A stretch of 64,000 nucleotides of DNA from an uncultured Armatimonadetes bacterium. Lineage in GTDB: Bacteria > Armatimonadota > Hebobacteria > Hebobacterales > Hebobacteraceae. The position numbers and the translations under genes are program-made. Under the pieces are notes generated by a model. That model was given only the letters and a program-made list of their open reading frames with translations, ran no database searches and was not told where the DNA came from. Below are positions 2,900-62,812 of this stretch, piece after piece (the stretch's first letter is position 1; every line of letters begins with the position of its first letter). The stretch is taken from NCBI GenBank assembly GCA_963716175.1, contig OY970296.1, forward strand, positions 1,664,001 to 1,728,000, written 5' to 3'.

Positions 2900-3012
2900 A
2901 CGGCGGGCATGCTTGGTTGCCTCCGGCGACCCGAGACATGCCCGCCCTACAGAAGAGGGATCGAGTGTTGGGGTGAGAAGATAGGCGGAAACCTGGAGCT
3001 GAGGAGAGCACC

Positions 3013-3825
3013 ATGAAGATCGGGGCGATGACGACTTCGTTTCGCAAGCCATTTCAGGAGAGCCTGGAGGCGGCGGCCGCGTTGAAGGTGGACGGAGTGC
3101 AGATCTGGGCCACCAATCTGACGTACTACGATCCCGACCACGCGGTGGGGGAGCTGGATCCGGACCTGACCACGGAGGCCCAGAAGAAGGAACTGCTGGC
3201 CACGCTGAAGCGGCTGAACCTGGAGATAGCCGCGCTCTGCGGCGATCTGGGCCGGGGGTTCATCAAACCGGATCACATCGCCGAGGATGTGGCGAAGACC
3301 AAGCGCATGCTCGATTTCGCCAAATCGCTGGGAGTGAAGGTGCTGACCTCCCATATCGGCCGCATCCCGGATGACCCGAAGGACCCCGGGTACCGCACCG
3401 CGGCGGAGTCGCTGGAGGAGATCGGCGCGCATGGCGACAAGGTGGGTGTGTTCTTTGCCAGCGAGACCGGCCCGGAGGCCGGAGCGGCGCTGGCCGCGTT
3501 TCTGCGCGGGCTGAAAGCGAAGTCCATCAAGGTCAACTACGATCCTGCGAACATGGTGATGAGGGGATTCGACCCGGTGCAGGGCGCGTACGATCTGGCC
3601 GGTTTCATCGTCCACACTCACGCCAAGGATGGCATCGGGCCGGGGCCGAAGCGGGGAGAGGTGCCATTGGGCGAGGGCGAGGTCCCGTGGCCGCGGTACC
3701 TGAAGGCGCTGAAGGATATTGGCTATGACGGCTACCTCACCATCGAGCGGGAGGTCGGCGAGAACCCGGCGGCCGACATCACCACCGCGGCAAAGTTCCT
3801 GAGGCAGGAGTTGGGAAAGCTGTAG
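3013..3825 (+). CDS. Sugar phosphate isomerase/epimerase (xylose isomerase-like TIM barrel)
   Basis: ASETGPE, NYDPAN, HTHAKD, GEGEVPW and LTIERE metal-binding motifs; GAGGAG RBS upstream. Confidence 0.85.
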   Translation: MKIGAMTTSFRKPFQESLEAAAALKVDGVQIWATNLTYYDPDHAVGELDPDLTTEAQKKELLATLKRLNLEIAALCGDLGRGFIKPDHIAEDVAKTKRMLDFAKSLGVKVLTSHIGRIPDDPKDPGYRTAAESLEEIGAHGDKVGVFFASETGPEAGAALAAFLRGLKAKSIKVNYDPANMVMRGFDPVQGAYDLAGFIVHTHAKDGIGPGPKRGEVPLGEGEVPWPRYLKALKDIGYDGYLTIEREVGENPAADITTAAKFLRQELGKL

Positions 3826-3947
3826 GGGCTGTAGGGCGGGGTCCCCTGACCCCGCCGGGCTCCTCTGTCATCCTTTGCTGCGCGCTCGCTCAGAATGACA
3901 GCCGCGGCGAGCCAGTCTTTGCGGTCATACCTCGGGCCGCCCCGCCG

Positions 3948-3976
3948 TTGACATGCCCCGCCCGGCCGGGTATGAT
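3948..3976 (+). promoter_or_regulatory. sigma70-type promoter of the rpmE operon
   Basis: TTGACA (3948-3953), 17-bp spacer, TATGAT (3971-3976). Confidence 0.8.
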
Positions 3977-4086
3977 AGCTGGTGGGTGGGGTGTGAGTGT
4001 TCCCAGGGCTGCGGCTATGCCGCAGCTTGCGCGGGGGTGGCGTCTTTTGTCGCGTGCGCCTTCGGCGCACGCCCAGGAGCTGAGCG

Positions 4087-4365
4087 ATGAAGGACAAGAT
4101 TCACCCCAAGTACGTGCCCGCGCGGGTGAGCTGCGCGTGCGGCAATAGCTTCGTGACTCGCGCCACCGTCCCGGAGATCCGGGTTGATATCTGCGCCAAC
4201 TGCCATCCTTTCTACACCGGACGGCAGAAGATCGTGGATACGGAGGGGCGGGTGGAGCGGTTCCAGCAGCGCTACGCGCGCTACGAGAGCAAAGTCAAGG
4301 AGGCCAAGGCCCGCCAGGCGAAGCCGGCCGCGCGGGCGAAGGCTCCGGCCGAACGCGCCGGCTAG
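4087..4365 (+). CDS. rpmE: 50S ribosomal protein L31 (zinc-binding type)
   Basis: MKDKIHPKY...CACG...[15 protein letters not shown]...GRVERF. Confidence 0.97.
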
Positions 4366-4383
4366 ATCGGGGGCGGCCGGCCG

Positions 4384-5346
4384 ATGGCCGACGAGCACGT
4401 GTCCCAAAGGGGCCAGGCCGTTAGCACGGGGGTAGGGAGTGCTCCTCCGCCGCAGGCGGAAGAGCACTTCTCATATGGGGGCCAGGCCGTGATCGAGGGG
4501 GTGATGATCCGGGGCCGCAAGGGGTATGCCACCGCGGTCCGGCTGGCGAGCGGGGAGATCGAGGTGGGGAAGCAGGCCTGGGAGCCCCTCGCCAGGCGCC
4601 ATCGGCTGCTCAGACTTCCCATCATCCGCGGCACCCCGGCTCTGATTGACGCAGTGCTGATCGGCTATCGCGCGCTGATCGCCTCGGCGGATGCGGCCTC
4701 GCGGGGAGAGGGGATAAAGCCGCCAAGCGCGTGGCACTACGCTCTCTCCATCGTGGTGGCGCTGGCGATTGCCATCGGGGGCTTCGTGCTCCTGCCCAGC
4801 GCAGTCATCCCGAGCGTACGGGAGCAATCTCTTGCCGCCATGCTTGGCAAGAACTTGCTGGAGGGCGCGATCCGGCTGATCGTGTTCGTGCTGTTCATCT
4901 ATGGGGCCTCGCTGATGCCGGACATGCGGCGGGTGTTCCAGTACCACGGGGCGGAGCACAAGGTGATCCACGCCTATGAGGGCACGGGGCGGTACAGTGT
5001 GGCGGAGGCGGCGTCCTATCGCACTCTCCACCAGCGCTGCGGCACGGCCTTCATCTTCATGGTCCTGTTCGTGGGCATCCTGGTGCATGCGCTGCTGGGG
5101 TGGCCTCCGCTGAAGTGGCGGCTGCTGTCGCGCCTGGTGGTGCTGCCCATCGTGGCCGGGATCGCCTATGAGCTGATCAAGCTGGCCGGGGCGCACAAGG
5201 AGTCGCGGCTGCTGGGGGCGCTGGTGGCGCCGGGGATGCTGCTGCAGAGGATCACCACGCGGCAGCCGACCGACGACCAGGTGGAGGTGGCGATTCGGGC
5301 CCTGGATGGGGCGCTGGAGTTGGACGGGGTGAAGGCGAGCGTGTGA
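4384..5346 (+). CDS. DUF1385 family membrane protein
   Basis: [20 protein letters not shown] and RCGT motifs; usual position between rpmE and prfA/prmC. Confidence 0.9.
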
Positions 5347-5347
5347 G

Positions 5348-6430
5348 ATGCTGAATCCGAACTTGCGAGAGAAGCTGCCGGAGCTGTCCCACCAGTACGA
5401 CGAACTGGGGGAGCAGTTGGGCCGGCCGGAGGTGGTGTCCGATCCCCGGCGGAGGCGGGAGGTCGGCAAGGCGCGGGCGCGGCTGGAGCCAGTGGTGAAC
5501 TCCTTTCGGGAGCTGGTGCAGGTGGAGGGGGATATCGCGGAGGCGGAGGCCCTGCTGGCGGAGGAGAGCGACCCGGAGCTGGCGGAGGAGCTGGGCCGGC
5601 TGAGGCAGCGAGAGGTGGAGCTGGCCGCGCACCTGGAGGAGGAGTTGGCGCCCCGCGACCCCGACAATGACCGGGACTGCATCGTGGAAATCCGCGCCGG
5701 CACCGGAGGAGAGGAGGCGGCGCTCTTCGCCGGGGATCTGCTCAAGATGTATATGCGCTACGCCGAGCAGGCCGGATGGCAGGTGGAGCTGCTGAGCCGG
5801 AACCCCGGAGATATCGGTGGGTACAAAGAGGTGGTGCTCTCGCTGAAGGGGCGGCGGGCGTTCGGGCAGCTCAAGCACGAGCGGGGAGTGCACCGGGTGC
5901 AGCGGGTGCCGGTGACGGAAGCCTCGGGGCGGATTCACACCTCGGCCGCCACAGTGGCGGTGCTGCCGGAGGTGGAGGAGGTGGAGGTGGAGATGAACCC
6001 GGCCAATCTACATATTGATACGTACCGCTCGGCGGGCGCCGGCGGCCAGAACGTGCAGAAGAACGAAACCGCAGTCCGGATCACGCATAAGCCCACCGGC
6101 CTGGTGGTGGCCTGCCAGGACGAGCGCTCGCAGCTCCAGAACCGGGAGAAGGCGCTGCGAGTGCTGCGGGCGCGGCTGTACGAGATGGCGCGGGCCCAGC
6201 AGGAGGCGGAGATCGCGCAGGCGCGCCGCTCTCAGGTCGGGACCGGCGACCGCAGCGAGAAGATCCGCACCTACAACTATCCCCAGGGGCGGGTGACCGA
6301 CCACCGGCTGGGCCGGAGCTGGCACAACTTGGCTGCGATCATGGAGGGGGGCATTGGGCCTATCCTGGAGGCGCTGGCGGAGCAGGATCGGCTGCAGCGG
6401 ATGAGCAGGGCGGTGCCGGGAACGACGTAA
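5348..6430 (+). CDS. prfA: Peptide chain release factor 1
   Basis: [20 protein letters not shown] (PxT), GAGGQNV (GGQ), [12 protein letters not shown]. Confidence 0.97.
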
Positions 6431-9339: not shown

Positions 9340-11105
9340 CTATTGATACCGGAAGTCCGTGTACTCGTGTTGAATGGGCTGGTTGGAGGTGCCGATCGCT
9401 ACCAGATACCACTCGCCTCCGAGCTGCCTCAGGCGGAAGGAGACGTACACCATGTGCTCGGCGCCATCGGGATCGTAGAACACCTGGCGGCCGGTGTAGA
9501 AGACTTCCTTGCTGGACAGCCAAATGGGATCGTCGAAGTCCATGGAAACCGTCTGGGTGGTGCTGACGGTGTCAAGCGTCATGGCGTAGAAGTCATCGGT
9601 GGTGGTGGTGTAGGAGTACTCGCCATCGAAGTAGACCCGGATATCGAGCTGGTCGGTGAGATGAGCGGCCAGCGGGCCGACATCACCATCCAGCCAGGCT
9701 AGCCGGATGTCCCTGATGGCCTCCGATGCACCCTGGTAGTCCAGGTGATAGCCACTGTAGTAGTAGCGGTACGGCGTCACCGGGACGTAAACGTACTCAA
9801 CGGGCGCGTAGTAGCACCGATCCGGGTAGATCCACCCCGGGCTCCAGCCGAAGTAGGCGTAGACGCCCGGGTAGTAACCCGGATAGTAGAGCCCGAAGAA
9901 ATAGGGGTCTGCGAAGTAGAAGGGGTACCAGAAGTTGATCAGGATCAGGGTGTGGTGGCGGCGGTGGAACCCGGTGAAGAAGCCGCCTCCCCGGCCCCAC
10001 ACCGCCCCGGGCGCGACCAGGTAGCCAAACCCAGGCCGCCCATAGTGGTTGACAATGGTGCTGTAGGTGCCCTTGATGTGGGTGACGTTGTCCCGCACCA
10101 GCCAAGCGGTGTCCTTGGCCACGGGATTGCCGACCACGTCGTGGCCCGGGCGCACGGTCTGGAAGCGTCCCAGCTGCGTGTTCTCCTGGCGCACCCGCTC
10201 CCGCAAGCGCGCCGGGAGCTGCTGCCGATCCTGAGGGGATACGAGTCGGACCTTCTGGTCGCTCTCCGCACCACGAAACTCGGCTTGCGGGACAGTGAAG
10301 CGCCGCGGCACGCGCGGCGGCGCGTTCGGGTTCACCACATTCTGCCCGGGAGTCCGGCCTGGCGTCGGCCTGCCCTCTGCGACACCGGGGCGCTGGCCCT
10401 GGGGCGTCTGCCTGGGGGGCGCGGCGGGCTGCTGCTCGCGCCCGCCAGCACGAGGCCGCTCTCTGACCTGTCCCTGCTCACCAGCCGTAGGCTTGGAGGG
10501 CCGCTCTTGGCCCGCCCTTGCTGATCGCTGGCGGAGCGGGAGGGCCGCTCTCTCGGGCTCGCCTGAGAGTTGCGCTCGCGGTTGCCCCACTCTGAGGCAG
10601 CAACTGGCGTGCCGGGGCGCTGGCGGTAGAGCTGGTAGACGTCGCCCTGGGATGGCTGCTGCCGCCGCGCGACGGGCGGGCGCTCGTAGCTGGGGGCCGC
10701 GCGCTGCTGGCCCCATCTCGGCTGAGGAACACCCTCTCCCTGCGACTGAGGTTGCTCAGGCTGGCGATACCATCGGAAAGCATCGGGCCGCGGGATCTGC
10801 TGCTGGCGGCCGCGCAAGCCCACGGCGGGTCCCTCTGGGCCAGGGCCTGGCCGGGCCGGAGGAGTGACCGACTGCGGCCCAGGTGTTTGGGCCTGACGGG
10901 GGGCAGCGCGCTCCTGTGCGGGCGCGCGCTCCGGCTGGCTGCGCGCCTTCTGGTCCGGCTGCGCCTGGCCGCGGTCAGACTGGCCCCGGTCGGATTGCCC
11001 CTTGCCCCGCTGACCCCAGGAGAATGACGGCAGCAGGGCCAGGCCGGCGAAAAGGACCGCGGTGAGGAGAGTGCTGCGAACTCGGTTGCTGTTGTGACCT
11101 GACAT
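9340..11105 (-). CDS. Secreted low-complexity (Q/R/P-rich) protein with Tyr/Pro-rich segment and C-terminal globular domain; frameshifted at ~10512
   Basis: The signal-peptide ORF (10332-11129) and the C-terminal ORF (9340-10716) join if one G is restored in the minus-strand GGG run, giving QGRGQER. Confidence 0.6.
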
Positions 11106-42739: not shown

Positions 42740-44956
42740 GGGCCATTCCTCGGGAGCGGGCGCGCGCTCGCCTGCACTTCGCCGACTTCCACCCAGCCCT
42801 GGTACTGAGATACATAGAGGGGCGCGATGGCGATGGCGATGCGATAGGCGCCGGAGCTGGCATTGCTCGGGACGATGATCTCTCCCTGCTGCTGACAGGC
42901 CGTCCCTGCCGGAGAGGGCGCGAGGCCCCACTGGCCATAGGCGACGGGGAAGGCCTGGAGCAAGCGCTCGTCTTGCCAATCCCTTCCTGTGAACTGCTCC
43001 AGATCCATTCCCGGAGGGACCAGAGCGACCGCGAACTGGGCCCGGGGCAGAGGTGTAGCGAGGCGCCAGGCGACGGTGAAGCCCACCATCTCGCCCGTGC
43101 CGGCCGCGGCGCGATTCAGATGGAACGCGACCAGGGAAATGCCCGCGGAGAACACTGCCTGCGCCGGCCCGGCCTGGCTGCGCAACATGTCGGGGGGCGC
43201 GAGTTGCAGGCGCACCAGATCCTCGCTCAGCCCCACGAAGTAGGGCGGCCCTGGAATCTGAATGTGCATGGGGCCGTGAACCGCATAGATAGCCCGACCG
43301 GGTAGACGCTTTGCCAGCAGATAGGCAAGCACCGCGGTCTGGTCGTGGATGTCCAGAGCCTGGGAGAGGGCCTGGGGCCAGAGGTCGCGCAGCGCCTGAC
43401 GCAGCGTGGGGTCCCCGATGGTGTTCAGATACCATGCTTGGGGCTGGCCGGGGGCGGGGAGGCGGACGCTGCGTACCAGGGTGACATCCCGGCGCAACCC
43501 CTCCACGTTCTGCAGATACATGGTGAAGAAGCTGGGCTGATCGAAGTCGGAGAGGAAGATAGCATTGGGGGCCATCTGCGAGAGCACCGCGGTCCAGCGA
43601 TCACGCGGCCCCCAGTCATCGCTGAGGTTCAGGCGATCCCAGTTGGCGCTCAGCAGCGTCGCGCAGAGCAGCGCGCCCAGCAGAGCCATGACATACCTGC
43701 CCTGCCTGGGCTGCGGGAGCGAGCTGCCGGCCCGCGCCAGCCCGAGTGCAAAGCAGACCGCCAGCACCGGCGCCAGGGGCTGCAGGAAGTGCTTGAGGTC
43801 GGAGGTCTCACCCCATCTCAGTACCCAGAAGGCGACCAGCAGGCAGCCGATGGCGGCCGCGGCCGCGACCAGCCGTTCCTTTCTCAGCCATGTGGCCCAG
43901 CCCCAGACGATGAGCGGAAGGCCAATCACGACCAGAACCAGGGAGAGGCCCACACTCGACGCGAGCAATTGGGGGACTAGCTTCCCCGCCTCGGTCAGCA
44001 TCTGCTCGAAGCTGTTGGCGAAGGCGAACTGGAAGTACTGCTTCGCCAGCACATGATAGAGCAACTGGTCGAGGGTGGTGGTGTCGGTCCACGTCACCGG
44101 TGGATGCTGCAAGGCCCGCCACCACAGGTAGAGGTAGAGAGAGCACGGGGCCAGGAGCAGGCCCACCGCGGCCAGGTAAGCTCGGAGGCATGTGCGCCGG
44201 ATGAGCGCGTAGCCGATCATCCCCACCGCTAGCACCCCGGCCCCCGCCATCCCCCAGTGACTCTGGCTGGAGGCGGCCAGTCCCGCCCCGACCAGCCAGG
44301 CCAGGGCCAGGTAGCGCCCTCGGCAGCGCGGTGGGGTGAGCAGGAAGGCTGCGAGAAACGCGGGCACGAGGGCGAGAAAAGCGGTGCGGTGGTGCATGGC
44401 CCCGAAGCCGCAGGCCAGGCAGAGCAAGCCCAGCGCCTGCGCGGACCTCTCCCGGTTCCATCGCCTGAAGGCCATCGAGCGCGATGGCGACAGACAGGGT
44501 GACGAGCGCGTGGACTTCGGCCCGCACCAGGTCGCTCCAGGGCACGGACCACAGCCCGAACGCGAGCCCGGCGAAGAGGGCCGGCAGGGCCGCGCCAGTG
44601 AGGTCGCTCGCAATCAGCGAGACCAGCGCGCCGGCTGCGGCGACGCCGACCGCGGACATCAGGCCCACCCGATAGGCGCTGGTGCCGCCGAGGGGCAGAT
44701 AATCGAAGAGCCGGCCGAGGAGCAGCCAGAGCGGGTAGCCGGTGGGATGGGGGATGCCCTGCACGTGGACGGCGGCGATCAGCTCGCCGCTGTCCTGATC
44801 CACCGCGGTGGGGAGCAGAGTGGCCCGGTAGATTAGCAGCAGGCCCAGGAAGACGGCCGAGGGCACGGCTCGGGCCAACCACCTGGGGAGTGGCGGCCGC
44901 GGTGGGGGTTGGGGTTGAGGGGGCCGGGCCTTGCCAGTTCGGCGCGACTTGCGCAT
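42736..44956 (-). CDS. DUF2723/TMEM260-like membrane glycosyltransferase, frameshifted at ~44476
   Basis: DSGEL...GIPHPTGYPL...AEVHAL in ORF 43808-44956 continues as MHHRT...YLQNVEGLRRDV in ORF 42736-44613. Confidence 0.8.
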
Positions 44957-45008
44957 GGCCAGAAGGTTCGGGAGGCCGGGCTCGCCGTCCTCCCTCAGGA
45001 GGGACAGA

Positions 45009-45029
45009 TGGAGCCGGCGGCAGGAATCG
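45009..45029 (-). repeat. 21-bp copy of the tRNA-Thr(TGT) 3' end (att-like direct repeat)
   Basis: tggagccggcggcaggaatcg is identical to 45494-45514. Confidence 0.9.
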
Positions 45030-45052
45030 CTTGTCCCGAGCGAGCGACGGGC

Positions 45053-45328
45053 TCATCGGGAGCGAGCCGAGGGAAACCCGCGAACAAGCTGTTCCTTCTT
45101 CGCCGCGCTCCAGTTCTTCACCTGGATCTCGCGGCGCCTGGCGGACGACTTGGTGGGGTGTGTCTCAGTGTAGACAAGTGCGACAGGTCGCCGCCGAGCA
45201 GTGTAGTCCGCCCCCAGACCTGCGTTGTGCACCCGGACGCGCTCTTCGGCGTCGAGGGCGATGCCGCAGTAGAGAGACCTATCAGAGCAGCGGACGAGGT
45301 AGAACGTCCACAGGCGAGTATCTGGCAT
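45053..45328 (-). CDS. Small GIY-YIG nuclease family protein (UPF0213/YhbQ-like)
   Basis: FYLVRCSDRSLYCG...R...HNAG.GA.YT..RRPV.LVY.E...A..RE..VK. Confidence 0.92.
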   Translation of the reverse strand: MPDTRLWTFYLVRCSDRSLYCGIALDAEERVRVHNAGLGADYTARRRPVALVYTETHPTKSSARRREIQVKNWSAAKKEQLVRGFPSARSR

Positions 45329-45331
45329 GGG

Positions 45332-45458
45332 TGGCCCCTCGACCCTGCTCGGGGTCGCCGAAGCGGCTGGCCCTCGACTCACTCGCTTGGCTCGTTGGCT
45401 CGGGGTCGCGGGAGGAGTGGCCCCTCGACTCGCTCCCTTCGATCGCTCGCTCGGGGTC
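45332..45458. repeat. Three palindromic TGGCCC(C)TCGAC...GCTCGGGGTC units, with an inverted fourth copy at 45035-45073
   Basis: Units at 45332-45356, 45368-45407 and 45418-45458; the reverse complement of 45035-45073 aligns with unit 3. Confidence 0.8.
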
Positions 45459-45493
45459 ACCGTTCTCATGTGCCTATGGGCACATGAGAACGG

Positions 45494-45569
45494 TGGAGCC
45501 GGCGGCAGGAATCGAACCCGCGACCAGCTGATTACAAATCAGCCGCTCTGCCAACTGAGCTACGCCGGC
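45494..45569 (-). tRNA. tRNA-Thr(TGT)
   Basis: GCCGGCGTAGCTCAG...GCTGA-TTTGTAA-TCAGC...GGTTCGATTCC...CCGGCTCCA, 76 nt. Confidence 0.97.
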
Positions 45570-45729
45570 ATCTGGCTAAACGCTAGAATCGCCTGAAAGG
45601 CATCCAAGACGCTCTGAACAGCCTTTCGGCTTTCGTACTTCTGTGCGCTCGCGCTCGCATTGCCCGACAATCAGTAGTACGCTTTTCGTAGGCTTTCGCG
45701 GGCAGCACCCGCCACTCGGTCCGGTTCCG

Positions 45730-45758
45730 ATTCTAGCAGAAGACCTACACCTTGTCAC
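45730..45758 (-). promoter_or_regulatory. Element-borne promoter for the intact tRNA-Thr
   Basis: GTGACA, 17-bp spacer, TGc-TAGAAT. Confidence 0.65.
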
Positions 45759-45790
45759 GCCCGGATCCGCCGTGGTGGGCACCTGCGCTG

Positions 45791-47017
45791 TCACTTCCGG
45801 CTGAACAGCTTCCGCGCGATCTCCGAGAGACTCGCGCCGTCTTCTGCCAGGGCGTCCTCGACATCCGCGCGACTGGGTGGACGCTGGCCTGTAGGGCGCG
45901 GGAACCGGACGCCCGCGGCGATGTCTGCCCGTGCGAATTGCCGGCGGCGCTCTTCATCGCTGACCACGGCATAGCGCGCCGTCATCAAGGGAGAGGTATG
46001 CCCCATCGCCTCCATGAGTGCGGTCTGATCTACACCGGCCGCCGCAGCACTCAGACCGAAGTGGTGTCGTAGCCGGTGCGGCATGACCAGCTTCGGGTCA
46101 AGGCCTGCGCGCTCCGCCGCACGCCTAAGCATTAGGCGGATTGCATCTACGGTCATGCGCTGCCCCGCCTCCCTTATGCCTCCTGCCGTTTCTCCCTCGG
46201 GGCCGGTCGCGGTACGGCCCGGCTCGAGCGTTACGAATAACGGATCCTTGTCCTCTAAGTGGGGGAAGGCACGGGCGCGAACGGCCAGCCAGGCGGTCAG
46301 TGCTTCCGCTACCTCCGGCCGCGTCATCACCGTACCGTCGCGGATCACCGACGGCAGATCCACGCTCCGCACGCGTCGGCCTCGGCCTATCTCTGACCGG
46401 ACCGTGACCCGGCCCTCTCTCGGATTTAGATCGCCGGCATTCAGACCACAGACCTCCGACACCCGCAGGCCGCAGAGCGCCATCAGGTGTATCATCGCGG
46501 TATTGCGTACGCCCGTGGCCGTGCGCGGGGTGAATGCCGAGAGTAGTACCTCCAGATCATCTGACCGAGTGGCCCGCGGTGCCTGCACTGGGTCCAGCCG
46601 GTAACCCTTCACATACCGGCCGATATCCTCGGCCAGCAGTCCTTGCTGATGCGCCCATCGCAGCAGCATCTTCGCCGAGTTGAGCGCCATCTGTTTGCCG
46701 CGCTGGCTGATCGGGCCCCGCCGCGTCTGATACTCATCGAGCCAGGTGATGAACGCGCGCAGGTGCTCACGGGTGAACCGGTCAACCGTAGCGATCCCCC
46801 GCTCCGCGGCAAAGGCGGCCAGCCGTGTCTCGAGTTGTTCGCGATAGTGGTCCAGCGTGGCCGGCCGGAGGTCGGGATGGTCGGCAGTCCACCTTCGCAG
46901 GAAGAGATCGATCGCAGCCTGCCAACCGAGGTGAGGCACGACCGTCCTGCCGCCGGCCGCCGAGCCGCCGTCTGCCGAGGTGCCCCTGCCCTTACCGGGT
47001 CTGTACTCAGTGCCCAT
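45791..47017 (-). CDS. Tyrosine recombinase/integrase
   Basis: Core-binding N-domain; CGLRVSE (R), PHRLRH (HxxR), MGH and TARY catalytic residues. Confidence 0.92.
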   Translation of the reverse strand: MGTEYRPGKGRGTSADGGSAAGGRTVVPHLGWQAAIDLFLRRWTADHPDLRPATLDHYREQLETRLAAFAAERGIATVDRFTREHLRAFITWLDEYQTRRGPISQRGKQMALNSAKMLLRWAHQQGLLAEDIGRYVKGYRLDPVQAPRATRSDDLEVLLSAFTPRTATGVRNTAMIHLMALCGLRVSEVCGLNAGDLNPREGRVTVRSEIGRGRRVRSVDLPSVIRDGTVMTRPEVAEALTAWLAVRARAFPHLEDKDPLFVTLEPGRTATGPEGETAGGIREAGQRMTVDAIRLMLRRAAERAGLDPKLVMPHRLRHHFGLSAAAAGVDQTALMEAMGHTSPLMTARYAVVSDEERRRQFARADIAAGVRFPRPTGQRPPSRADVEDALAEDGASLSEIARKLFSRK

Positions 47018-47034
47018 CGCCAGTGCCCTACGGG

Positions 47035-47063
47035 ATCAGTAGTACGTCGAAATCAGTAGTACG
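47035..47063. promoter_or_regulatory. ATCAGTAGTACG direct repeats; putative integrase arm or operator sites
   Basis: Exact 12-mers at 47035-47046 and 47052-47063; a third copy at 45670-45681 in the same orientation. Confidence 0.7.
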
Positions 47064-47310
47064 ATGGTAGCGACGGTCTGTCGTCACGTCAAGTGGTTGG
47101 CTGCGGCCCCGTTGCGGCCCGACGCTGAGGGAATAGTGACCGAAGGCACCGGTTCGCCTTCGGCAGGGGCCCGGTACCAGTGCGGTCCTCAGGCGATGGG
47201 GTCAAAATCCAGCAAGCTGTGCGGGGCATGTAGGCCGGCGTTGACAGAGATAGACCTCAGTTTACAAATCAGCCGCTCTGCCAACTGAGCTACGCCGGCG
47301 CAATCTCACG

Positions 47311-47339
47311 ATTCTAGCATCTACGGGCGTGGCTGTCAG
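47311..47339 (-). promoter_or_regulatory. Promoter immediately upstream of the tRNA 5'-half copy
   Basis: CTGACA, 17-bp spacer, TGc-TAGAAT, 11 bp before the duplicated tRNA start. Confidence 0.7.
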
Positions 47340-47962
47340 CCCGTGCGCACGGGTTCCGGCGGTCGGCGTCGCCAGGAAGACAGGCGATTCCAGATCCACC
47401 GCCAAGGCCTGCAGCAGAGGTGCCAGAACCTTGTTGCAGGTGAGCGCTCGGCGCTCACCGCATCCAGGTTCTTCACCAGCTCCTCGGTGCTGTCAACGGC
47501 TCCTGCCGCGTACTTCACAGCATCGGCAAGGCCGCCTGTGATCGCGGTGTCGGCAACGGATCTCACACTCGCACTAGGTGCTGAAGATCGGGCCACGCAG
47601 TGTTGGTTGACCAGGCGCAGTTTGTCCAATAGCACCTTGAGCCGCATGTAGCAGATGGCAGTCTTAATGGCGAGTTCTCTCGGCAGCAGCAATAAGCGTT
47701 GTCCCGCGCCGTCGAATAGAGGGAAGTAGTTCTCCTCCGAAGACCACCGAATATCGTTCGGAAGCGCCTTCCCCTGCACCGGCTTCACTTCGTCCCAGCG
47801 CGTCAGCAACGCCCGAAGCTCGGCCGCCAAAGCGCCTGCAAGCAGTGTTTTCTCATACTGCCGTTGCCGGTTCGCGCGAATCCAGGCGAGGAATTCAGAT
47901 ATGCCAATGCCGACGAGTACTGCGCCAGCCCCTATCAGGCTGCCTTTGATCGTGGAATCCAT
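47336..47962 (-). CDS. Hypothetical island protein with N-terminal TM helix
   Basis: MDSTIKGSLIGAGAVLVGIGISEFLAW...; lower GC than core genes. Confidence 0.65.
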   Translation of the reverse strand: MDSTIKGSLIGAGAVLVGIGISEFLAWIRANRQRQYEKTLLAGALAAELRALLTRWDEVKPVQGKALPNDIRWSSEENYFPLFDGAGQRLLLLPRELAIKTAICYMRLKVLLDKLRLVNQHCVARSSAPSASVRSVADTAITGGLADAVKYAAGAVDSTEELVKNLDAVSAERSPATRFWHLCCRPWRWIWNRLSSWRRRPPEPVRTG

Positions 47963-48065
47963 CGAGAAACCCCTCCGCTCCTGGACAGGATAGCACGCAA
48001 GGACACCTCGGTCCATCATCCACAGGCTTCATGCCCGGTCGGTATTGCAGAGCGAGCAGCCCCGG

Positions 48066-48600
48066 TCAGCGGAGGAGCGGAGCGGGCTCAGTTGGGCGCA
48101 ACCCGTGCAGGCTGACCCCCTTCCCAATATCCGCCCTCGCGAACGCCCACCTCCTCTCGGCGTCGGCGGACTCCGAGTAGCGGGCGGTCATGATTGGACT
48201 GCGATGGCCCATGGCGCGGATCAGGGCCGTGGTGGGCACTCCGGCCATCGCCGAGGTCAGACCGAAGTAGTGGCGCAGCCGGTGCGGGGTGGCCAGCCTC
48301 GGGTCTACGCCGGCCTTCTCCGCGATGCGCTTGAGAATGGTGCGCACCGCATCCGTGGTCAGCCGCTCGCCAGGCGGCCGCGCACCCGGATGGGCCTTCC
48401 CCGTGTCCCGATAGGTGCAGAGCTGCTGGCCAGAGCCCAGGGTGATGAAGAGAGGATCTTCCTCGCTCAGGCGAGGGCACACCCCGGAGCGCAGCCGCAG
48501 CCAGGACGCCATTAACCCGGCTACCTCCGGCTTCACCCTCTCCTCTCCGTCCACGATCGTCAGTGGCAGGTCGACAGAGCGGGTGCGCCGAGCGACGCTG
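48066..48600 (-). pseudogene. C-terminal fragment of a paralogous tyrosine recombinase
   Basis: RSVDLP...PEVA...WL..R...DPLFITL...PHRLRHYFGL...MGH.SP.MTARY...FARADI aligns closely with the 45791 protein; N-terminal half absent. Confidence 0.88.
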
Positions 48601-48834
48601 GCAGAAGGGGAAGCGACGGGACACGCCCATGTCGCCGAGAGCGACGCTCCGTTCGATGTGTTCGCGTTCCGACGTGGCGATCGGGTGGTGACGCTGTACT
48701 TGCGGGCAGCCCAGGCCGTGCGCGTTCTGCACGAAGAGCACCGCCTGGTCACACTGCAGCCAGGACTGTACGAGATCGCCCGTGTCCTTGAGCGTGACTG
48801 GCTGACCGGAGTCACGCGAGAGGTTGTGGACTGA
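48580..48834 (+). pseudogene. 5'-truncated phage/island-type conserved small protein
   Basis: LAEGEATGHAH...HEEH...L.PG.Y.I.R..E.D.....R.V.D motif; no start, abuts the integrase fragment. Confidence 0.7.
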
Positions 48835-49223
48835 GGGGCGGCTGCCAAGCATCGGGAAGGAGCGAAGGATGGCGAAGGCACTGTGGGCGCCGACGGTAAC
48901 GAAGGGAATGCCCGAAGCGTGAGAGACGTCCAACTAGACGACTGGGTGCGTAGTGCCGGCAATCCTCTCGTCCTGTCAGGTACAAGCCGTTGCAGCCCCG
49001 GGGGTTGTCCCCCCGAAAAACGTCATCCTCGAGACAACCATCGAGCAGCCACGGGACATCTGGGGCTTTTGGGGATTCGGACCTGTTGTAGAGGTCCCTA
49101 TAGGACGGCGCGTCAACAGCCCCCCCTGCAGTTTCCCGACGACCATCCTCTGGTCTCTAATGAGACATGTCCCTATCGGCGCTCGCGTCGCGCAATCTAT
49201 CGTCGGTTTCGGGGGGCCTGTCC

Positions 49224-49461
49224 TGTCCGGAAACTCATCTGGCTCTCAGCGCCTCTGCAGAGCCCACAGTGTGGTTGCCTATCCCCCCGATACCCCTGTG
49301 CTGAGAGGCACCAAGGATGACCGAGCGATACCGGGTGAGGTCGTGGCGGGGCGGGGCTGCCGGTGAGCGCTACCGTGGCGCGGCTGCTGTCCCATCCGCT
49401 ACGGAGTCCGGACCGTGAGACCCCACGCCGAGGAGGTAGCCGGAGTCGGGGGTGGCCGGGG
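49224..49461. repeat. Copy of a ~240-bp dispersed MITE-like repeat
   Basis: Begins ccggaaactcatct and ends gtagccggagtcgggggtggccgggg; colinear with 58216-58457. Confidence 0.75.
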
Positions 49462-49566
49462 GCGGCTTCACGGGCGGTTGACAGGGATACACAGTCCGAC
49501 CCCCTCTGGCGCGGCGAACAGCCGGCCGGCCCGGCACCAATCCCATTTGGACGCGGGCGCTGGCCC

Positions 49567-50199
49567 TTACCAGGCACGCACGTTCCAGCTCAGGACCGCG
49601 TAGCCGTAGGTATGGTGCGGAGAGCTATTGGAGACGTAGATCGCCGGGTTCAGCTGGAGCGTCGGTGTGAAATTGTAGATCAGCCCCGCCGTCGCGAAGT
49701 TGTCGCTTCCCGCCTGATAATCCACCGCCACCTGTAGCTGGCGGTTCACAGCATGGGCCCAGCCCAGCAGCGAAGAAAGCTGATAGCCCTGCCGGATCAC
49801 TCCCGCAATGAGGTAGTCGCGTCCACTGACCCATCCGGCCTCCAGGAATGGCTGAAAACCCTGGCCCGGGCCTGGCGCGTAGAGGCCGGTCGAGAACAGT
49901 AAGTGCGGGCGCTGCACCAGACCATACTCCACGCCGCCTATGAACTGCCCAGGCGAGAGGCCCCGGGACAGTGCCACCTCGAGCTTCCGCGTGAGGCCTA
50001 CCTCGAACTGCAATTGCTTGCTGTTCCCGATGGCGGGATGCTCGCCTTGGAAGCTGATCGACAGCACCCCCTCCGGCTGAGTGTCTGGGGTGATGATCTG
50101 GTTCAGACCCTTGGTGGTTGCCCCCGCGGGAGAACCGGCTGCGACCGAAAGGGCCAGTCCGGCTAGCGCGCTGAAACCAGCCAGGCGCAGAGTTGTCAT
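49567..50199 (-). CDS. Putative small outer-membrane beta-barrel protein
   Basis: Signal peptide, amphipathic strands, terminal aromatic residue (VRAW). Confidence 0.6.
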   Translation of the reverse strand: MTTLRLAGFSALAGLALSVAAGSPAGATTKGLNQIITPDTQPEGVLSISFQGEHPAIGNSKQLQFEVGLTRKLEVALSRGLSPGQFIGGVEYGLVQRPHLLFSTGLYAPGPGQGFQPFLEAGWVSGRDYLIAGVIRQGYQLSSLLGWAHAVNRQLQVAVDYQAGSDNFATAGLIYNFTPTLQLNPAIYVSNSSPHHTYGYAVLSWNVRAW

Positions 50200-50885
50200 C
50201 TCGGTGGGCCTCTCTGCAACCCGCCGGGTTACCTACCGGCAGGTAGCCACCGGACCAGCGATTGCCTTAGTCGGGATTCCCCCATCAAGCCGCTTGTCCC
50301 TCCTTGGGGCGGCTACCCCTCTGTTGCCGGGCTGATCTGCTGCCTCGGGCGCGACAGGGCCTCGAGATCCTCCCCAATCGATGCGTTTTCCGCGTTTCGC
50401 GCGGTCTGTCACACTGCCATCCACAACGTGATGCCACTGGTCTGGGCACTCGAACTGGTGTCTTAAGCCCACTTGACACCCGCAGAGCGGTCGGCGCGAT
50501 GGAAGGTGCCTTTGCCCAACACGGTGCCCCCCGTCCCCTCCTTCATGACGGCTCGACGAGCGATCCCCCGCTGCCATCTCCAGGACCTGATTCGCCGCAG
50601 ACTACCATAGGCTAGGTCGAGCCCGACGGGCGTCAGACTCTCTGGAGAGCTTGGTGTCCTCGCCTCAGATCGTGGTGGAGACGTGCCAGCCGAGCAAGAG
50701 GCGTTCTGACCTTTGCGGAAGAGAGTGAGACGTGTTAGTATCACGCCGCACTCAACCCGACCGAAGCCATCAGAAGTGCCTGATCGCAAGCAGTTGAGTG
50801 AGACCGTCGGGATCCCCCGCGTGTCCCATTCGTGCCGATGCGTCGCGCCACTTTGGGCCCCGCGCAGGTTCCCAGGAGGTCTGGC

Positions 50886-52631
50886 GTGGCCGAGCCACTT
50901 GGATGCTTCGTACTGGTGTTGCATGGACACCTCCCATATGTGCTGGAGCACGGCGGCTGGCCGCATGGTAGCGAGACGCTGTTCGAGGCTGCGGCCGATT
51001 CCTACATACCGCTGCTGTGGACCCTGGAGGAGCTGGCTCACGAGGGGGTAACGCCTAGGGTAGTCATCAGCCTTTCCCCCGTCCTCCTGGAACAGCTTGC
51101 CGATGATGGCTTCAGGCAATGGTTCGTGGACTACTTAGAGGACACGATCCACTGGGCCGCGGAGAACGAACGGGAGTTCCGAGCCTCTGGCGACGGGCAT
51201 GCCGCATTCTTGGCCCGCCGCTGGCGGGAGCGTTACGAGGCCCTGCGCGAGAGCTTCTGTAACCGCTACAACCGCGACTTACCAGCGGCCTTCCGACGGC
51301 ATCAGGAGGCCGGGCACATCGAGATAATGACGAGTGCAGCCACCCATGCCTACCTGCCGCTTCTGCGGGAGGACGGCAGCGTGCAGCTTCAGACTAAGCT
51401 GGCCGTGGCCACCTACGAGAAGCACTTTGGCCGCTGGCCGCGGGCGATGTGGTTGCCCGAATGCGGCTACCGGCCGCGGGCGATGTGGGCACCGGCCCCA
51501 CAGATCGCGGGCCCGGAGGCACCTTATCCCCGCAAGGGCACCGAGGAATTCCTGGCAGAGAACGGCATCGACTACTTCATCATCGACACCCATATGCTGG
51601 GAGGCGGGGGACCAGAGCCTATCGAAGTCGACTGGCAACACACCTTGGGTAAGCTGTGGGGAGGAATTCGCAAGGCACGCGAGCCGCGGCCCTATTCCGG
51701 TGAGAAACGTCCCTACTTCCCCTACTTCGTCGGCCACTACTATGAGGACCATCCGCCTGTGGCCGTGTTTGCCAGAGATCCCGAAACCGGGGTCAAGGTG
51801 TGGAGCGCTGATCATGGCTACCCCGGCGACGCCGACTACTTAGAGTTCCATAGGAAGCACGCTCCGGGCACCCTCCGCTACTGGCGAGTCACGGGCCCAG
51901 AATGGGCACTCGGTGATAAGGACTGGTACCACCCGGATTGGGCGGAGGGGAAAGCTCGACTGCATGCTGGCAACTTCCTGTGGACGGTGAAGGAAACACT
52001 GCGCGCCCAGCCCCGTTCCGGCGGCCGGCTTCCCGTGCTGGTGGCGGCCTTTGACGCCGAGCTGTTCGGCCACTGGTGGCATGAGGGGCCTCTGTTCCTG
52101 GCCCATGCCCTGCGCTGGATGCATCAGGACCCCGACATCGAGGTGCTGACCGGCAGTGATTATCTGGCCCGCTACTCGCCCGAAACCGCGATCACCCTCC
52201 CCGAGGCATCCTGGGGAGCAGGCGGCGGCCATCAAGTCTGGCTGAACGACGAGACCAACTGGATCTGGCAGCGCATCCATGATGCCGAGCTAGACGTGAA
52301 GGCACTCCTGAACGACCATGGCTGCGGCCACGACAGTGCGATGCGGGCCTTGATCGAGCAGGCGCTGCGCCAGCTGGTGCTGCTACAGGCGTCGGACTGG
52401 CCGTTTCTCATCACCACCTGGACAGCCCGTGACTACGCGAGCCAGCGTGTGCACTGCCATCACTCTGACTTCAAGCGAGTGGCCGGGATAGCCCGCAGGT
52501 ACGGCCGGGGCGAACGACTCACGGAGGAGGAGCGGCACTACCTTGAGCATCTTCAGGAGCGGGACCGTCTCTTCCCGGAGATCGACCCCGCCTGGTTCGC
52601 GGAGGAGGCCAGGCCAGCTAGGTGGGCCTGA
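50886..52631 (+). CDS. GH57 1,4-alpha-glucan branching enzyme (DUF1957)
   Basis: VLHGHLPY, ATHAYLPL, WLPECGY, FDAELFGHWW.EG, QASDWPF. Confidence 0.93.
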   Translation: MAEPLGCFVLVLHGHLPYVLEHGGWPHGSETLFEAAADSYIPLLWTLEELAHEGVTPRVVISLSPVLLEQLADDGFRQWFVDYLEDTIHWAAENEREFRASGDGHAAFLARRWRERYEALRESFCNRYNRDLPAAFRRHQEAGHIEIMTSAATHAYLPLLREDGSVQLQTKLAVATYEKHFGRWPRAMWLPECGYRPRAMWAPAPQIAGPEAPYPRKGTEEFLAENGIDYFIIDTHMLGGGGPEPIEVDWQHTLGKLWGGIRKAREPRPYSGEKRPYFPYFVGHYYEDHPPVAVFARDPETGVKVWSADHGYPGDADYLEFHRKHAPGTLRYWRVTGPEWALGDKDWYHPDWAEGKARLHAGNFLWTVKETLRAQPRSGGRLPVLVAAFDAELFGHWWHEGPLFLAHALRWMHQDPDIEVLTGSDYLARYSPETAITLPEASWGAGGGHQVWLNDETNWIWQRIHDAELDVKALLNDHGCGHDSAMRALIEQALRQLVLLQASDWPFLITTWTARDYASQRVHCHHSDFKRVAGIARRYGRGERLTEEERHYLEHLQERDRLFPEIDPAWFAEEARPARWA

Positions 52632-52990
52632 AGGCACCGCGTATCCATGGCTGGGGCGAGTGTGCTTCTCAACAGCACGCTGTGCAGACCGCCGGTAAGC
52701 GGGGCGCTCCTGACCATGCGGGCCAGAGGACTTCACCAGGACGACAGAAGAAGGTGAGTCGGTGTTCTCCTCCCCCCTTTTCGACGGTTGCATGGATCGG
52801 GGGAGACCTTTCCTGCTTCCTGCTGCACCCGCCACGCGAGATCGGTGTCATCCCCCTCGGCCTTTCCGGCCTGCTTTACAGGTGAGCCTGCAAACCTTCG
52901 AGATGGCCTCCTAGGCGGACAGGGCGATCAGGCAGATCGGGGGGTAGAACCACCAGCCCAAACGAGTTGCGCGCCACGAGCGCGGCCTGC

Positions 52991-53234
52991 GTCAACTACT
53001 ACAGCCGCGAGCGCTACCACGGGGCGCTGAGGAACGGGACGCCAGACGATGTCTACTTCGGCCGATAGGAAGCCATCCTGGCGCGGCGAAAGGCGCTCCA
53101 GGTCAGGAGCTTTGTGGCCCAGCGGGAGTACCACCGACGGATGGGAGAAGGGGACTCAGGATGCAGGGGCCGGAACATCCGAGGTACAGGTTAATGCAGC
53201 ACCCGTCTTGTCCCACTCTTGCTGACGCCGGACA
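52991..53234 (+). pseudogene. IS3/IS481-like transposase 3' remnant with terminal IR
   Basis: [35 protein letters not shown] with an internal stop; ends ...tgtcccactcttgctgacgccggaca. Confidence 0.7.
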
Positions 53235-61519: not shown

Positions 61520-62812
61520 TGTACAGACTGGATAGATAGGTAACACTCGTACCGGATACATAGGTAACGGGCAAGCGGTTACTATAGAGGCATGCATCTC
61601 TTCCTAGAGGAGAGGGGCCATGCCCTGGGAGCCAGTTACCGTGGAGCAGCAGCGACGGGAGTTTGTGATGTTCGCCCAGCAGGGGAGGGTGCCGTTTCGG
61701 GATCTGTGCCGCCGCTTCGGCATCAGCCCCAGGATCGGCTACAAATGGTGTTATCGCTTTGCTGAGGCCGGGGAAGTGGGCTTGCGGGATCACTCCCGCC
61801 GGCCCCACCGGAGGCGCCCGCAACTGCCGGCAGCCACCCAGCAGGCAATCGTGGCGCTCCGCCAGGCGCACCCGTGCTGGGGAGCCCGCAAGCTTCGCCG
61901 GCTGCTCCGCAACCAGGGCCTCCACCCCGTGCCAGCCACCAGCTCCATTACCGCGACCCTGCATCGGCACACGCTCATCGGTGCGGACTCGCCTGCGGGT
62001 CAGCGCCCCTGGGTGCGTTTCGAGCGCCCACTGCCCAACGACCTCTGGCAGATGGACTTCAAGGCGCCGGTAGCGACGCAGACGGGTCCCCAGCACGTGC
62101 TGAGCGTGCTGGACGATCATTCTCGCTTTGCCCTCTCTCTGCAGGCGCTGCCCAAGCAGGACGGGTGCTCCGTGCAGGCGGCGCTAGTGGCCGCTTTCCG
62201 GCACTATGGGGTGCCGGAGGCGATGCTGTCGGACAATGGAGGTCCCTGGGGAGATCTGGCCGCGGACGCATATGGGGCGCTGGCGGTGTGGCTGATGCGG
62301 CTGGGGATATACGTGACTCACTCTCGGCCCTACCATCCCCAGACCGTGGGCAAGGATGAACGCTTCCATGGCAGCTTGCAGCGAGAGCTGCTGGCGCGGC
62401 ACCAGTGGCGAGACGGGGAGCACCTGCAGGCGCACCTGGATCCGTGGCGGGAGCAATATAACTTCCTGCGCCCTCACGAGGCGCTCGCGCTGGAGGTGCC
62501 GGCAAGTCGCTACCAGCCCAGCCTGCGCGCCTACCCCGCGCAGCTGGAGCCGATCCAGTACCCGCCGGGGCTGCCGGTGCGCAAGGTGCAGCGTGGGGGC
62601 GAGGTGCACTTCGGGGGGCGTCTGCTGCCCGTTTCCAAGGCCTTCCGCGGTCAGCCGGTGGCCGTGCGCGCCACTGATATCGACGGCCTGGTGGAGGTGC
62701 TCTTCTGCCATCAGGTGATCAAACGCCTGACACTAGGGGAGTGCCCGAAGGCGGAGTAGAAGTGTTACCTATGTACTCGGCACATCCGTTACCCATGTAA
62801 CCGGTCCGCACA
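61520..62812 (+). mobile_element. IS481-family insertion sequence, apparently intact
   Basis: TGT...ACA ends, imperfect IRs with repeated ATAGGTAAC boxes, 5-bp GGTAG duplication (61515-61519 and 62813-62817). Confidence 0.92.
61620..62759 (+). CDS. IS481-family DDE transposase
   Basis: MPW..., LWQMDFK, LDDHSRF, SDNG, PYHPQT.GK.ERFH, YN..RPHEAL. Confidence 0.95.
   Translation: MPWEPVTVEQQRREFVMFAQQGRVPFRDLCRRFGISPRIGYKWCYRFAEAGEVGLRDHSRRPHRRRPQLPAATQQAIVALRQAHPCWGARKLRRLLRNQGLHPVPATSSITATLHRHTLIGADSPAGQRPWVRFERPLPNDLWQMDFKAPVATQTGPQHVLSVLDDHSRFALSLQALPKQDGCSVQAALVAAFRHYGVPEAMLSDNGGPWGDLAADAYGALAVWLMRLGIYVTHSRPYHPQTVGKDERFHGSLQRELLARHQWRDGEHLQAHLDPWREQYNFLRPHEALALEVPASRYQPSLRAYPAQLEPIQYPPGLPVRKVQRGGEVHFGGRLLPVSKAFRGQPVAVRATDIDGLVEVLFCHQVIKRLTLGECPKAE

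Follow-up and report, generated by a model that had tools for sequence, protein, structure and literature searches.

The window analysed here is a stretch of 64,000 nucleotides from the genome of an uncultured Armatimonadetes bacterium (contig OY970296.1, positions 1,664,001 to 1,728,000). Its minus strand carries an intact gene for tRNA-Thr(UGU) at 45494..45569 (anticodon tgt), which is called by ARAGORN and scores 70.9 bits against the Rfam tRNA model. Upstream of this gene and on the same strand is int1 (45791..47017), encoding a tyrosine recombinase of 408 amino acids (PF00589, E 3.3e-25), and further upstream still lies an orphan copy of the 5′ half of the same tRNA. The two copies of the half form a direct repeat with int1 as the sole gene between them, and the segment that they bracket, a putative integrative element referred to here as Int1-type, is the subject of this analysis.

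One copy of the repeat, the attR core, is contained within the tRNA gene (45532..45569, minus strand) and the other, the attL core, constitutes the orphan half (47262..47299, minus strand). Since ARAGORN places tRNA-Thr(tgt) at 45494–45569 on the minus strand, the repeat corresponds to nucleotides 1–38 of the tRNA, and the identity is bounded by the +1 position of the tRNA at one end and by the last base of the anticodon loop at the other. The 38-nucleotide string occurs exactly twice in the window, with 0 mismatches and at a spacing of 1730, and was matched in 0 of 100 shuffles. The whole genome of the source organism is a single contig of 4.56 Mb (G000; G-numbers denote genomes and L-numbers the fetched loci, which are mostly metagenome contigs) and contains no third copy with up to three mismatches allowed. 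The first-pass annotation, made from the sequence alone, had described a 38-bp repeat equal to tRNA-Thr nucleotides 1–38 flanking one tyrosine recombinase, and this description holds, the repeat being both exact and unique in the genome. Among the 59 genes found by ARAGORN genome-wide (58 tRNA genes and one tmRNA gene) no other Thr tRNA has a tgt anticodon, the two remaining Thr tRNAs having the anticodons ggt and cgt.

From repeat start to repeat start the element measures 1730 bp, one copy of the repeat included. Read towards the tRNA, the orphan half is followed by approximately 170 nucleotides of variable DNA, the int1 promoter, two tandem repeat sites and int1 itself, and then by a sigma-70-type promoter facing the tRNA, a third repeat site, a variable leader of approximately 100 nucleotides and the tRNA gene at the right end, composed of the attR core and the host 3′ half. 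Nucleotides 1–38 of the intact gene would come from the element, provided that the crossover falls in the anticodon loop. The layout agrees with the configuration rule of the Islander method, with a whole tDNA, a co-oriented 5′ fragment upstream and an integrase between them, while at only 1730 bp the element lies outside the 2–200 kb length range of that method. There is no second conserved open reading frame (ORF) in the element, the arms aligning with those of related elements at the promoters and sites only, and no replication, packaging or cargo module accompanies the integrase in the window. Taken together with the next 29 nucleotides (47233–47299, minus strand), the orphan half scores 26.1 bits against the Rfam tRNA model, below the cut-off of 29. 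Within this stretch seven nucleotides at 47234–47240 are exactly complementary to the 5′ strand of the acceptor stem, and these are kept in the related genome G011 and not in locus L052. Global alignment to tRNA nucleotides 39–76 gave no support for descent of the left arm, by decay, from the 3′ half of a whole tRNA carried by an ancestral element; the best z among 31 distinct arms was 1.8 (a value reached by 25 of 500 shuffles) and that of the window arm −0.2.

The Int1 protein matches PF00589 over residues 151–355 with 89.3 bits (cut-off 27.1). Alignment to XerD (PDB 1a0p) puts the catalytic positions at Arg185, His314, Arg317, His340 and Tyr349, of which Arg185, Arg317 and Tyr349 are invariant in 14 of 14 Int1 sequences and His340 is present in 12 of the 14. 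A Xer-like two-domain core is followed by a conserved C-terminal tail ending SLSEIAR(K/R)LF, which is invariant in all 14 Int1 sequences and missing from the Int2 proteins, the two subfamilies being defined by identity to the window protein (at least 64% for Int1 and about 50–57% for Int2). Relative to XerC/XerD-type recombinases there is an insertion at about residues 222–285. The N-terminal 30 or so residues are unconserved among the 14 Int1 sequences and are modelled as disordered, in a low-confidence model; the AlphaFold2 prediction from these sequences has a mean pLDDT of 53.5, is confident only over approximately residues 30–140 and leaves the tail unresolved. Scores against the NCBIfam equivalogs are below their cut-offs, at 101.6 versus 335.15 for XerC and 85.7 versus 329.6 for XerD. 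A protein search at E ≤1e-20 returned 35 clusters alone, so the family is small and apparently confined to this lineage. Judged from a dN/dS of 0.15–0.21 against its orthologues, int1 is under purifying selection. Its conservation of 70–74% at the amino acid level is that of well-conserved neighbours, such as a 383-residue protein that is 75–78% identical to those of G010 and G014; for the adjacent membrane protein the identity across G011, G010, G014 and G001 is only 43–58%.

Forty relatives were searched at the DNA level and 80 metagenome loci were surveyed. In G011, a single-contig genome from a different genus, 73% identity to the window extends over the tRNA, the integrase and the orphan half, and in G014 the integrase also adjoins the tRNA. 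Among the metagenome loci that include the 3′ end of an integrase, 43 of 66 have tRNA-Thr(UGU), or a half ending at nucleotides 37–39, downstream on the same strand. Eight of these 66 loci are of the Int1 type, and six of the eight have the tRNA-Thr(tgt) or a half (five tRNAs and one half) at a distance of 189–228 nucleotides; in the other two only 7 and 48 nucleotides of contig remain. The Int2 sister subfamily has the same geometry, with a tRNA or half (16 tRNAs and 21 halves) at 177–5519 nucleotides in 37 of its 58 loci, and of the 21 loci that lack a match 16 have less than 1.3 kb of room and five have 2.5–4.7 kb. Every one of the 22 downstream halves ends at nucleotide 37, 38 or 39. Five Int1 loci also have the upstream half, 240–325 nucleotides before the integrase match, and complete units of half, int1 and tRNA measure 1689 bp in L052, 1726 bp in L053 and 1652 bp in L054, the corresponding lengths in the window and in G011 being 1730 and 1707 bp. 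An association of homologous integrases with 5′ fragments of tRNA-Thr had been set as a test of the first-pass annotation, and 43 of the 66 metagenome loci have the tRNA or such a fragment.

Sites with and without the element can be compared at matching junctions. In L082 and L065 the flank that precedes the half of L053 (75 of 79 positions identical) is joined directly to a whole tRNA gene, which is followed by the same 21 nucleotides as in L053. Similarly, in L069 the 64-nucleotide flank of the L056 half (64/64 identical) is joined to a whole tRNA gene, and a third pair of occupied and empty sites is provided by G014 and G013, which belong to the same genus and have 88% flank identity. Locus L057 holds a tandem pair of Int1 units that share 87% identity, and the single half between them has a right arm on one side and a left arm on the other. 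In all six loci that hold both a half and a tRNA, G011 included, the two are identical at 38 of 38 positions, with differing flanks; the G011 tRNA differs from that of the window at three positions, and the orphan half of L056 has one change. The divergence of the element, as far as these sequence comparisons go, does not track that of the host: L052 has 84% identity over the element and 72–80% over the flanks, and L059 has 74% over the element and 66–88% over the flanks (77–81% over long gene blocks). The orthologous units, the empty-site pairs and the tandem copies support the earlier description of a discrete element of approximately 1.73 kb inserted in the rarer geometry.

These comparisons bear on the view that the element is an immobilised relic or a domesticated module, fixed as the only working promoter of an essential tRNA and with int1 kept for a host function. 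Such a view would account for the same position in three genera, for the absence of cargo and transfer genes and for the purifying selection on int1, and the contigs, which break in the repeat, give no excision signal. It is nevertheless unlikely, since close relatives differ in the presence or absence of the element at exactly matching junctions, the tandem copies are diverged and the divergence of element and flank is incongruent, while the complete identity of orphan half and tRNA in six of six loci is unexpected for a neutral relic.

A consensus promoter scan over 44900–48100 gave three promoter-like sites where 0.5 would be expected, every one on the minus strand. Two of these, at 47339..47311 and 45758..45730, had been picked out in the first-pass annotation and are both recovered by the scan; the third, at 47092..47064, was absent from it. 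The promoter at 45730..45758 (GTGACA-17-TAGAAT with TGc) faces the tRNA, with its −10 ending 160 nucleotides before the tRNA +1. The −35 TGACA and the −10 TAnAAT are kept in nine of nine Int1 right arms, and of the 61 unique tRNA or half sites 47 have the same design in front of them on the sense strand, as against two hits on the antisense strand and one in shuffled sequence; 44 of the 47 lie 93–171 nucleotides from +1. The motif occurs six times in the genome, twice at this locus, and by the consensus scan there is no acceptable promoter nearer to the window tRNA. Because the promoter is conserved in all nine right arms, the tRNA is most likely fed by, and dependent on, this element-borne promoter, as had been proposed from the window sequence. 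The leader of 160 nucleotides is long beside those of the other tRNA genes in the genome, whose −10 lies about 10–20 nucleotides upstream, and the tRNA might instead be read by transcription continuing from int1 or from a weak promoter close to it (TTGGAT-16-TAGCGT, immediately upstream of 45569), with the conserved motif serving otherwise. We regard this as improbable: the proximal candidate fails the scan and is unconserved, whereas the conserved motif faces the tRNA with no intervening gene, is kept in nine of nine Int1 arms and is placed at 93–171 nucleotides in 44 of the 61 sites, compared with two antisense hits.

The int1 gene has a promoter of its own at 47064..47092 on the minus strand (TTGACG-17-TACCAT), found by the same scan and with two of the repeat sites directly after it. 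In seven of seven Int1 left arms its −35 CTTGAC is invariant, and its −10 and the two sites are conserved. With this conserved promoter no captured or outside promoter is required for int1, and the suggestion that the element captures the promoter of the tRNA for its integrase is weakened accordingly.

The repeat sites belong to a 13-nucleotide family, CGTACTACTGATT on the minus strand, with three copies in the element. Sites 1 and 2 stand in tandem right after the −10 of the int1 promoter, site 1 (47051..47063, minus strand) over the expected int1 transcription start and site 2 (47034..47046, minus strand) 17 nucleotides from it, and site 3 (45669..45681, minus strand) is in the right arm, in the tRNA leader between the tRNA-facing promoter and the tRNA, approximately 100 nucleotides before the tRNA +1. 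A 12-nucleotide core of the motif has three occurrences in the genome, all of them within the element. The regular expression GTAC..C.GAT matches Int1 arms once at approximately 100–113 nucleotides before the tRNA and once or twice at 155–216 nucleotides after the half. The right-arm motif is present in eight of nine Int1 right arms (the G014 arm being entered through locus L027) and at the tandem junction of L057, and on that strand no Int2-type arm in the fetched loci was matched. The end of the motif, CTGATT, is also the sequence of the 5′ strand of the anticodon stem with the first bases of the loop, and in L054 and L057 one copy of the site shares nine nucleotides with the tRNA. The three Int1-specific sites probably bind Int1, aid assembly of the recombination complex and repress transcription of int1.

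The promoter at 47311..47339 (minus strand; CTGACA-17-TAGAAT with TGc) ends its −10 11 nucleotides before the orphan half and points through the half into the element. Read-through from here into int1, with a transcript that would start with a tRNA 5′ half, is a further prediction of the first-pass annotation. Its −35, CTGACA, is of the element type, whereas other tRNA genes of the genome have TTGAC. The sole close counterpart precedes the outermost half of G011, with the same design at 12 nucleotides, and both promoters lie downstream of an Int2-type integrase, at 0.8 kb in the window and 2.45 kb in G011. Given the element-type design and the Int2-type integrase upstream in both genomes, the orphan-half promoter is probably the right end of an older, decayed Int2 island; its element-type sequence, 0.8 kb downstream of a truncated integrase, weakens the idea that it is the native promoter of the tRNA. 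In the outgroup family represented by G015 the same promoter design stands 45 nucleotides before the tRNA, which leaves room for a native origin. The truncated integrase (48108..48599, minus strand) lacks its 5′ part and covers amino acids 213–376 only, corresponding to the C-terminal part of PF00589, and with 74% identity to the G010 Int2 by tblastn it is, on this similarity, a relic of an older island of the same family. No further integrase remnant was found in 47300–53000. Between the remnant and the orphan-half promoter an orphan ORF of 227 amino acids (47336..48019, minus strand) has no Pfam match, and neither the fetched loci nor the rest of the genome contain a homologue; it is possibly leftover cargo. 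A full-length Int2-type paralogue is present at G000:4519417–4520463 (minus strand), and within 30 kb of it neither a tRNA-Thr half nor the promoter motif occurs.

This debris beyond 47300 and the larger size of the Int2 relatives could suggest that the element arose by deletion from a larger island and is non-autonomous debris in which the integrase happens to survive. In G014, exceptionally, a BlaI-like repressor and a BlaR1-like sensor are found between the half and the int1 promoter, in a form of 6.4 kb that likewise speaks for this reading. The left end of G014, though, resembles that of the cargo-less L056, and for this reason the G014 cargo looks like an addition. Moreover, the cargo-less form of 1.65–1.73 kb recurs with conserved arm features in G000, G011, L052, L053 and L054, among which the integrases have 67–88% identity to that of the window (74% in G011). 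Recurrence with conserved arms marks it as a stable unit, and an origin by deletion is quite improbable. That the structure is an assembly artefact or a chance repeat can be dismissed as extremely improbable, for although short-read contigs from other samples break in the repeat, no shuffle reproduced it and the same architecture is present in the independent assemblies G011 and G014 and in at least five metagenome contigs, which also counters misassembly of the repeat, the refuting condition named at the outset.

We consider it likely that the segment between the repeats is a cargo-less site-specific integrative element that works as follows. Int1, a Xer-like tyrosine recombinase, would recombine an attP of approximately 370 bp, consisting of the right arm, nucleotides 1–38 and the left arm, with the intact tRNA-Thr(UGU) gene, the crossover falling in or beside the seven-nucleotide anticodon loop. 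The former 5′ half, and any promoter ahead of it, would be displaced upstream, and the element would bring a new 5′ half and a new promoter, so that the sole tRNA-Thr(UGU) stays expressed. This proposal starts from what is observed, namely the anatomy and its conservation, the occupied and empty sites in relatives, the tandem copies and the purifying selection on int1, and from there we infer the position of the crossover, the use of the promoters, the roles of the sites and the present-day activity of this copy.

A number of observations weigh against the proposal. His314, the first His of the HxxR motif, varies as His, Asn or Arg among the 14 Int1 sequences, and the column of the Lys in the β2–β3 hairpin holds Arg when compared with XerD, in a loop where the alignment is uncertain and model confidence low. 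The int1 orthologue of G011 (L045 10064–11207) is in two frames that meet near 10171–10173, and is either a pseudogene or the product of an assembly error in a single-contig genome rated 65% complete. No transfer, replication or excisionase gene is present in the element to account for movement between cells, and no relative was found among the IMG/VR viral contigs. Vertical inheritance over a long period could equally account for the shared position in three genera. While empty sites were found for orthologous elements, in the three contrasts described, no relative has one for the window's own upstream flank, and none can be constructed because the GH57 orthologues lie elsewhere in G001, G011, G014, G010 and G005. 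Metagenome contigs break inside the 38-bp repeat, so that neither excision nor a circle is shown: contigs from four runs (X1–X4) over 44500–48700 cover parts of the integrase and the arms, and none spans a repeat with 31 letters on each side. A search for sequencing runs gave 24, none of them of RNA. Joints seen in contigs at 45570–47309, 47340–48166 and 45569–48163 have sides of 30 letters or fewer and probably come from relatives or from the repeat itself. Finally, the CTGATT common to the sites and the core could be due to chance, with an estimate of about 0.1.

A more far-reaching version, which we put forward only tentatively and think rather doubtful as a whole, is that the Int1 unit is autonomous and mobile in a minimal form, its only parts being one Xer-like recombinase and an attP of approximately 370 bp. 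It would always enter the intact tRNA-Thr(UGU) gene and take over its transcription, leaving the sole tRNA for ACA codons dependent on the newest arrival as a “promoter hostage”, and sites that mimic the core would let a recombinase without an arm-binding domain assemble and repress its own synthesis. If this were true, no smaller tRNA-targeting integrative element that is self-sufficient would have been described, and at approximately 1.7 kb it would be an integration tool ready for use. For the cargo-less integrative element as proposed above, the significance would lie first in how it deals with its target, as entry on the 5′ side of a tRNA gene parts the gene from its promoter and the solution here appears to be that the right arm of attP carries a conserved promoter. 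It would also mean that a tRNA-targeting element reduced to an integrase and an attP can still maintain itself and spread in a lineage. Elements as small as this are under the 2-kb filter of Islander, and the half-tRNAs that they leave behind confuse tRNA annotation. A self-contained module of 1.7 kb aimed at a conserved tRNA gene may in addition be of use as a genetic tool in Armatimonadota, which are poorly tractable.

On the 3′ side of the tRNA-Thr gene, the window carries a GIY-YIG cassette at 45009–45493. It comprises, in this order, a perfect 17-bp hairpin at 45458–45495, three 51-nucleotide tandem repeats at 45347–45462, an ORF at about 45053–45328 (PF01541, 1.3e-16) and a 21-nucleotide copy of the tRNA 3′ end at 45009–45029. 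The cassette is also found in G010, G014 and L060, the last with two in tandem, is absent from G001 and G011 and in L052 survives only as a remnant; it seems to be a small mobile cassette of its own, one that duplicates the tRNA's 3′ end. In G001, a single-contig genome, three tRNA-Thr 5′ halves (L029, L030 and L031, at approximately 1.636, 0.172 and 2.699 Mb) lie far from the tRNA at 0.362 Mb, and a fourth copy is cut at nucleotide 33. Each half is preceded by right-end-type sequence and followed by an Int2-type left end, and some adjoin integrase remnants; they represent either an old array dispersed by rearrangements or elements that also insert at other sites. Elsewhere in G000 a conserved stretch of approximately 60 nucleotides, opening with the tRNA D-arm-like CTCAGGTGGTAGAGC, precedes the tRNA-Phe(gaa) genes at 747667, 789636, 981231, 2099497 and 2285183 and the tRNA-Leu(gag) gene at 161982, and may be another repeat or element carrying a tRNA fragment. 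An IS481-like transposase with rve and HTH domains is encoded at 61620–62759 on the plus strand of the window.

Integrases of the lambda and P4 type act on an attP of a few hundred base pairs with repeated accessory sites on both arms, some of which overlap the int promoter, a placement that suggests autoregulation. In elements of this type the 3′ part of the tRNA is what is restored and the host promoter is retained, and the integrase binds the arm sites through a dedicated N-terminal domain. The Int1 element likewise has accessory sites on both arms that overlap the int promoter, but it would replace the 5′ part of the tRNA and there is no sign of an N-terminal arm-binding domain in its integrase. 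The best sequence matches of Int1 are the simple recombinases XerC and XerD (PDB 1a0p), with which it shares a two-domain core, no conserved N-terminal arm-binding domain being evident. It differs from them in scoring far below the NCBIfam cut-offs, in the insertion at approximately residues 222–285, in the C-terminal tail and in having a tRNA att site instead of dif.

The insertion geometry is rare but already known. According to the accessible text of the Islander paper (Hudson, Lau and Williams, PMC4383910), 3760 of 3919 islands have a 3′ fragment and 159 a 5′ fragment, in keeping with the first-pass statement that the geometry is the rarer one, and candidates of less than 2 kb were rejected. 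The islands with a 5′ fragment described there also have their tyrosine integrase placed between the complete tRNA gene and a co-oriented fragment displaced upstream, and their crossover is centred on the anticodon, as it probably is here; unlike those islands, the element here is 1.73 kb in length, cargo-less, under the 2-kb filter and hosted by Armatimonadota. An island-supplied promoter goes unmentioned in the same text (PMC4383910), in which the word ‘promoter’ occurs 0 times. The Klebsiella arg2A-VII islands offer a further parallel, by description and not by sequence: in the part of the report seen (10.1101/2020.11.02.365908) their integrase clade, unlike those of other islands there, inserts upstream of tRNA-Arg, although into the D-loop and with full-size islands, whereas the site here is the 3′ edge of the anticodon loop. 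For the tycheposons, or tRNA-seeded islands, of Prochlorococcus, the portion of the account available (10.1101/2020.12.28.424599) describes newcomers at the tRNA that push older ones outward and leave partial tRNAs and broken integrases behind. The arrays of G011 and of the window fit this picture of outward displacement, but tycheposons carry replication or packaging modules as well as cargo, where the present element has an integrase only. The literature searches made here gave no specific report of an element-supplied tRNA promoter or of an integrase-only tRNA element. Set against these systems, what is new, in the sense of a variation on a known geometry, is an integrase family of Armatimonadota devoted to nucleotides 1–38 of tRNA-Thr(UGU), together with a recurrent cargo-less form of 1.7 kb and a conserved promoter for the tRNA that is supplied by the element.

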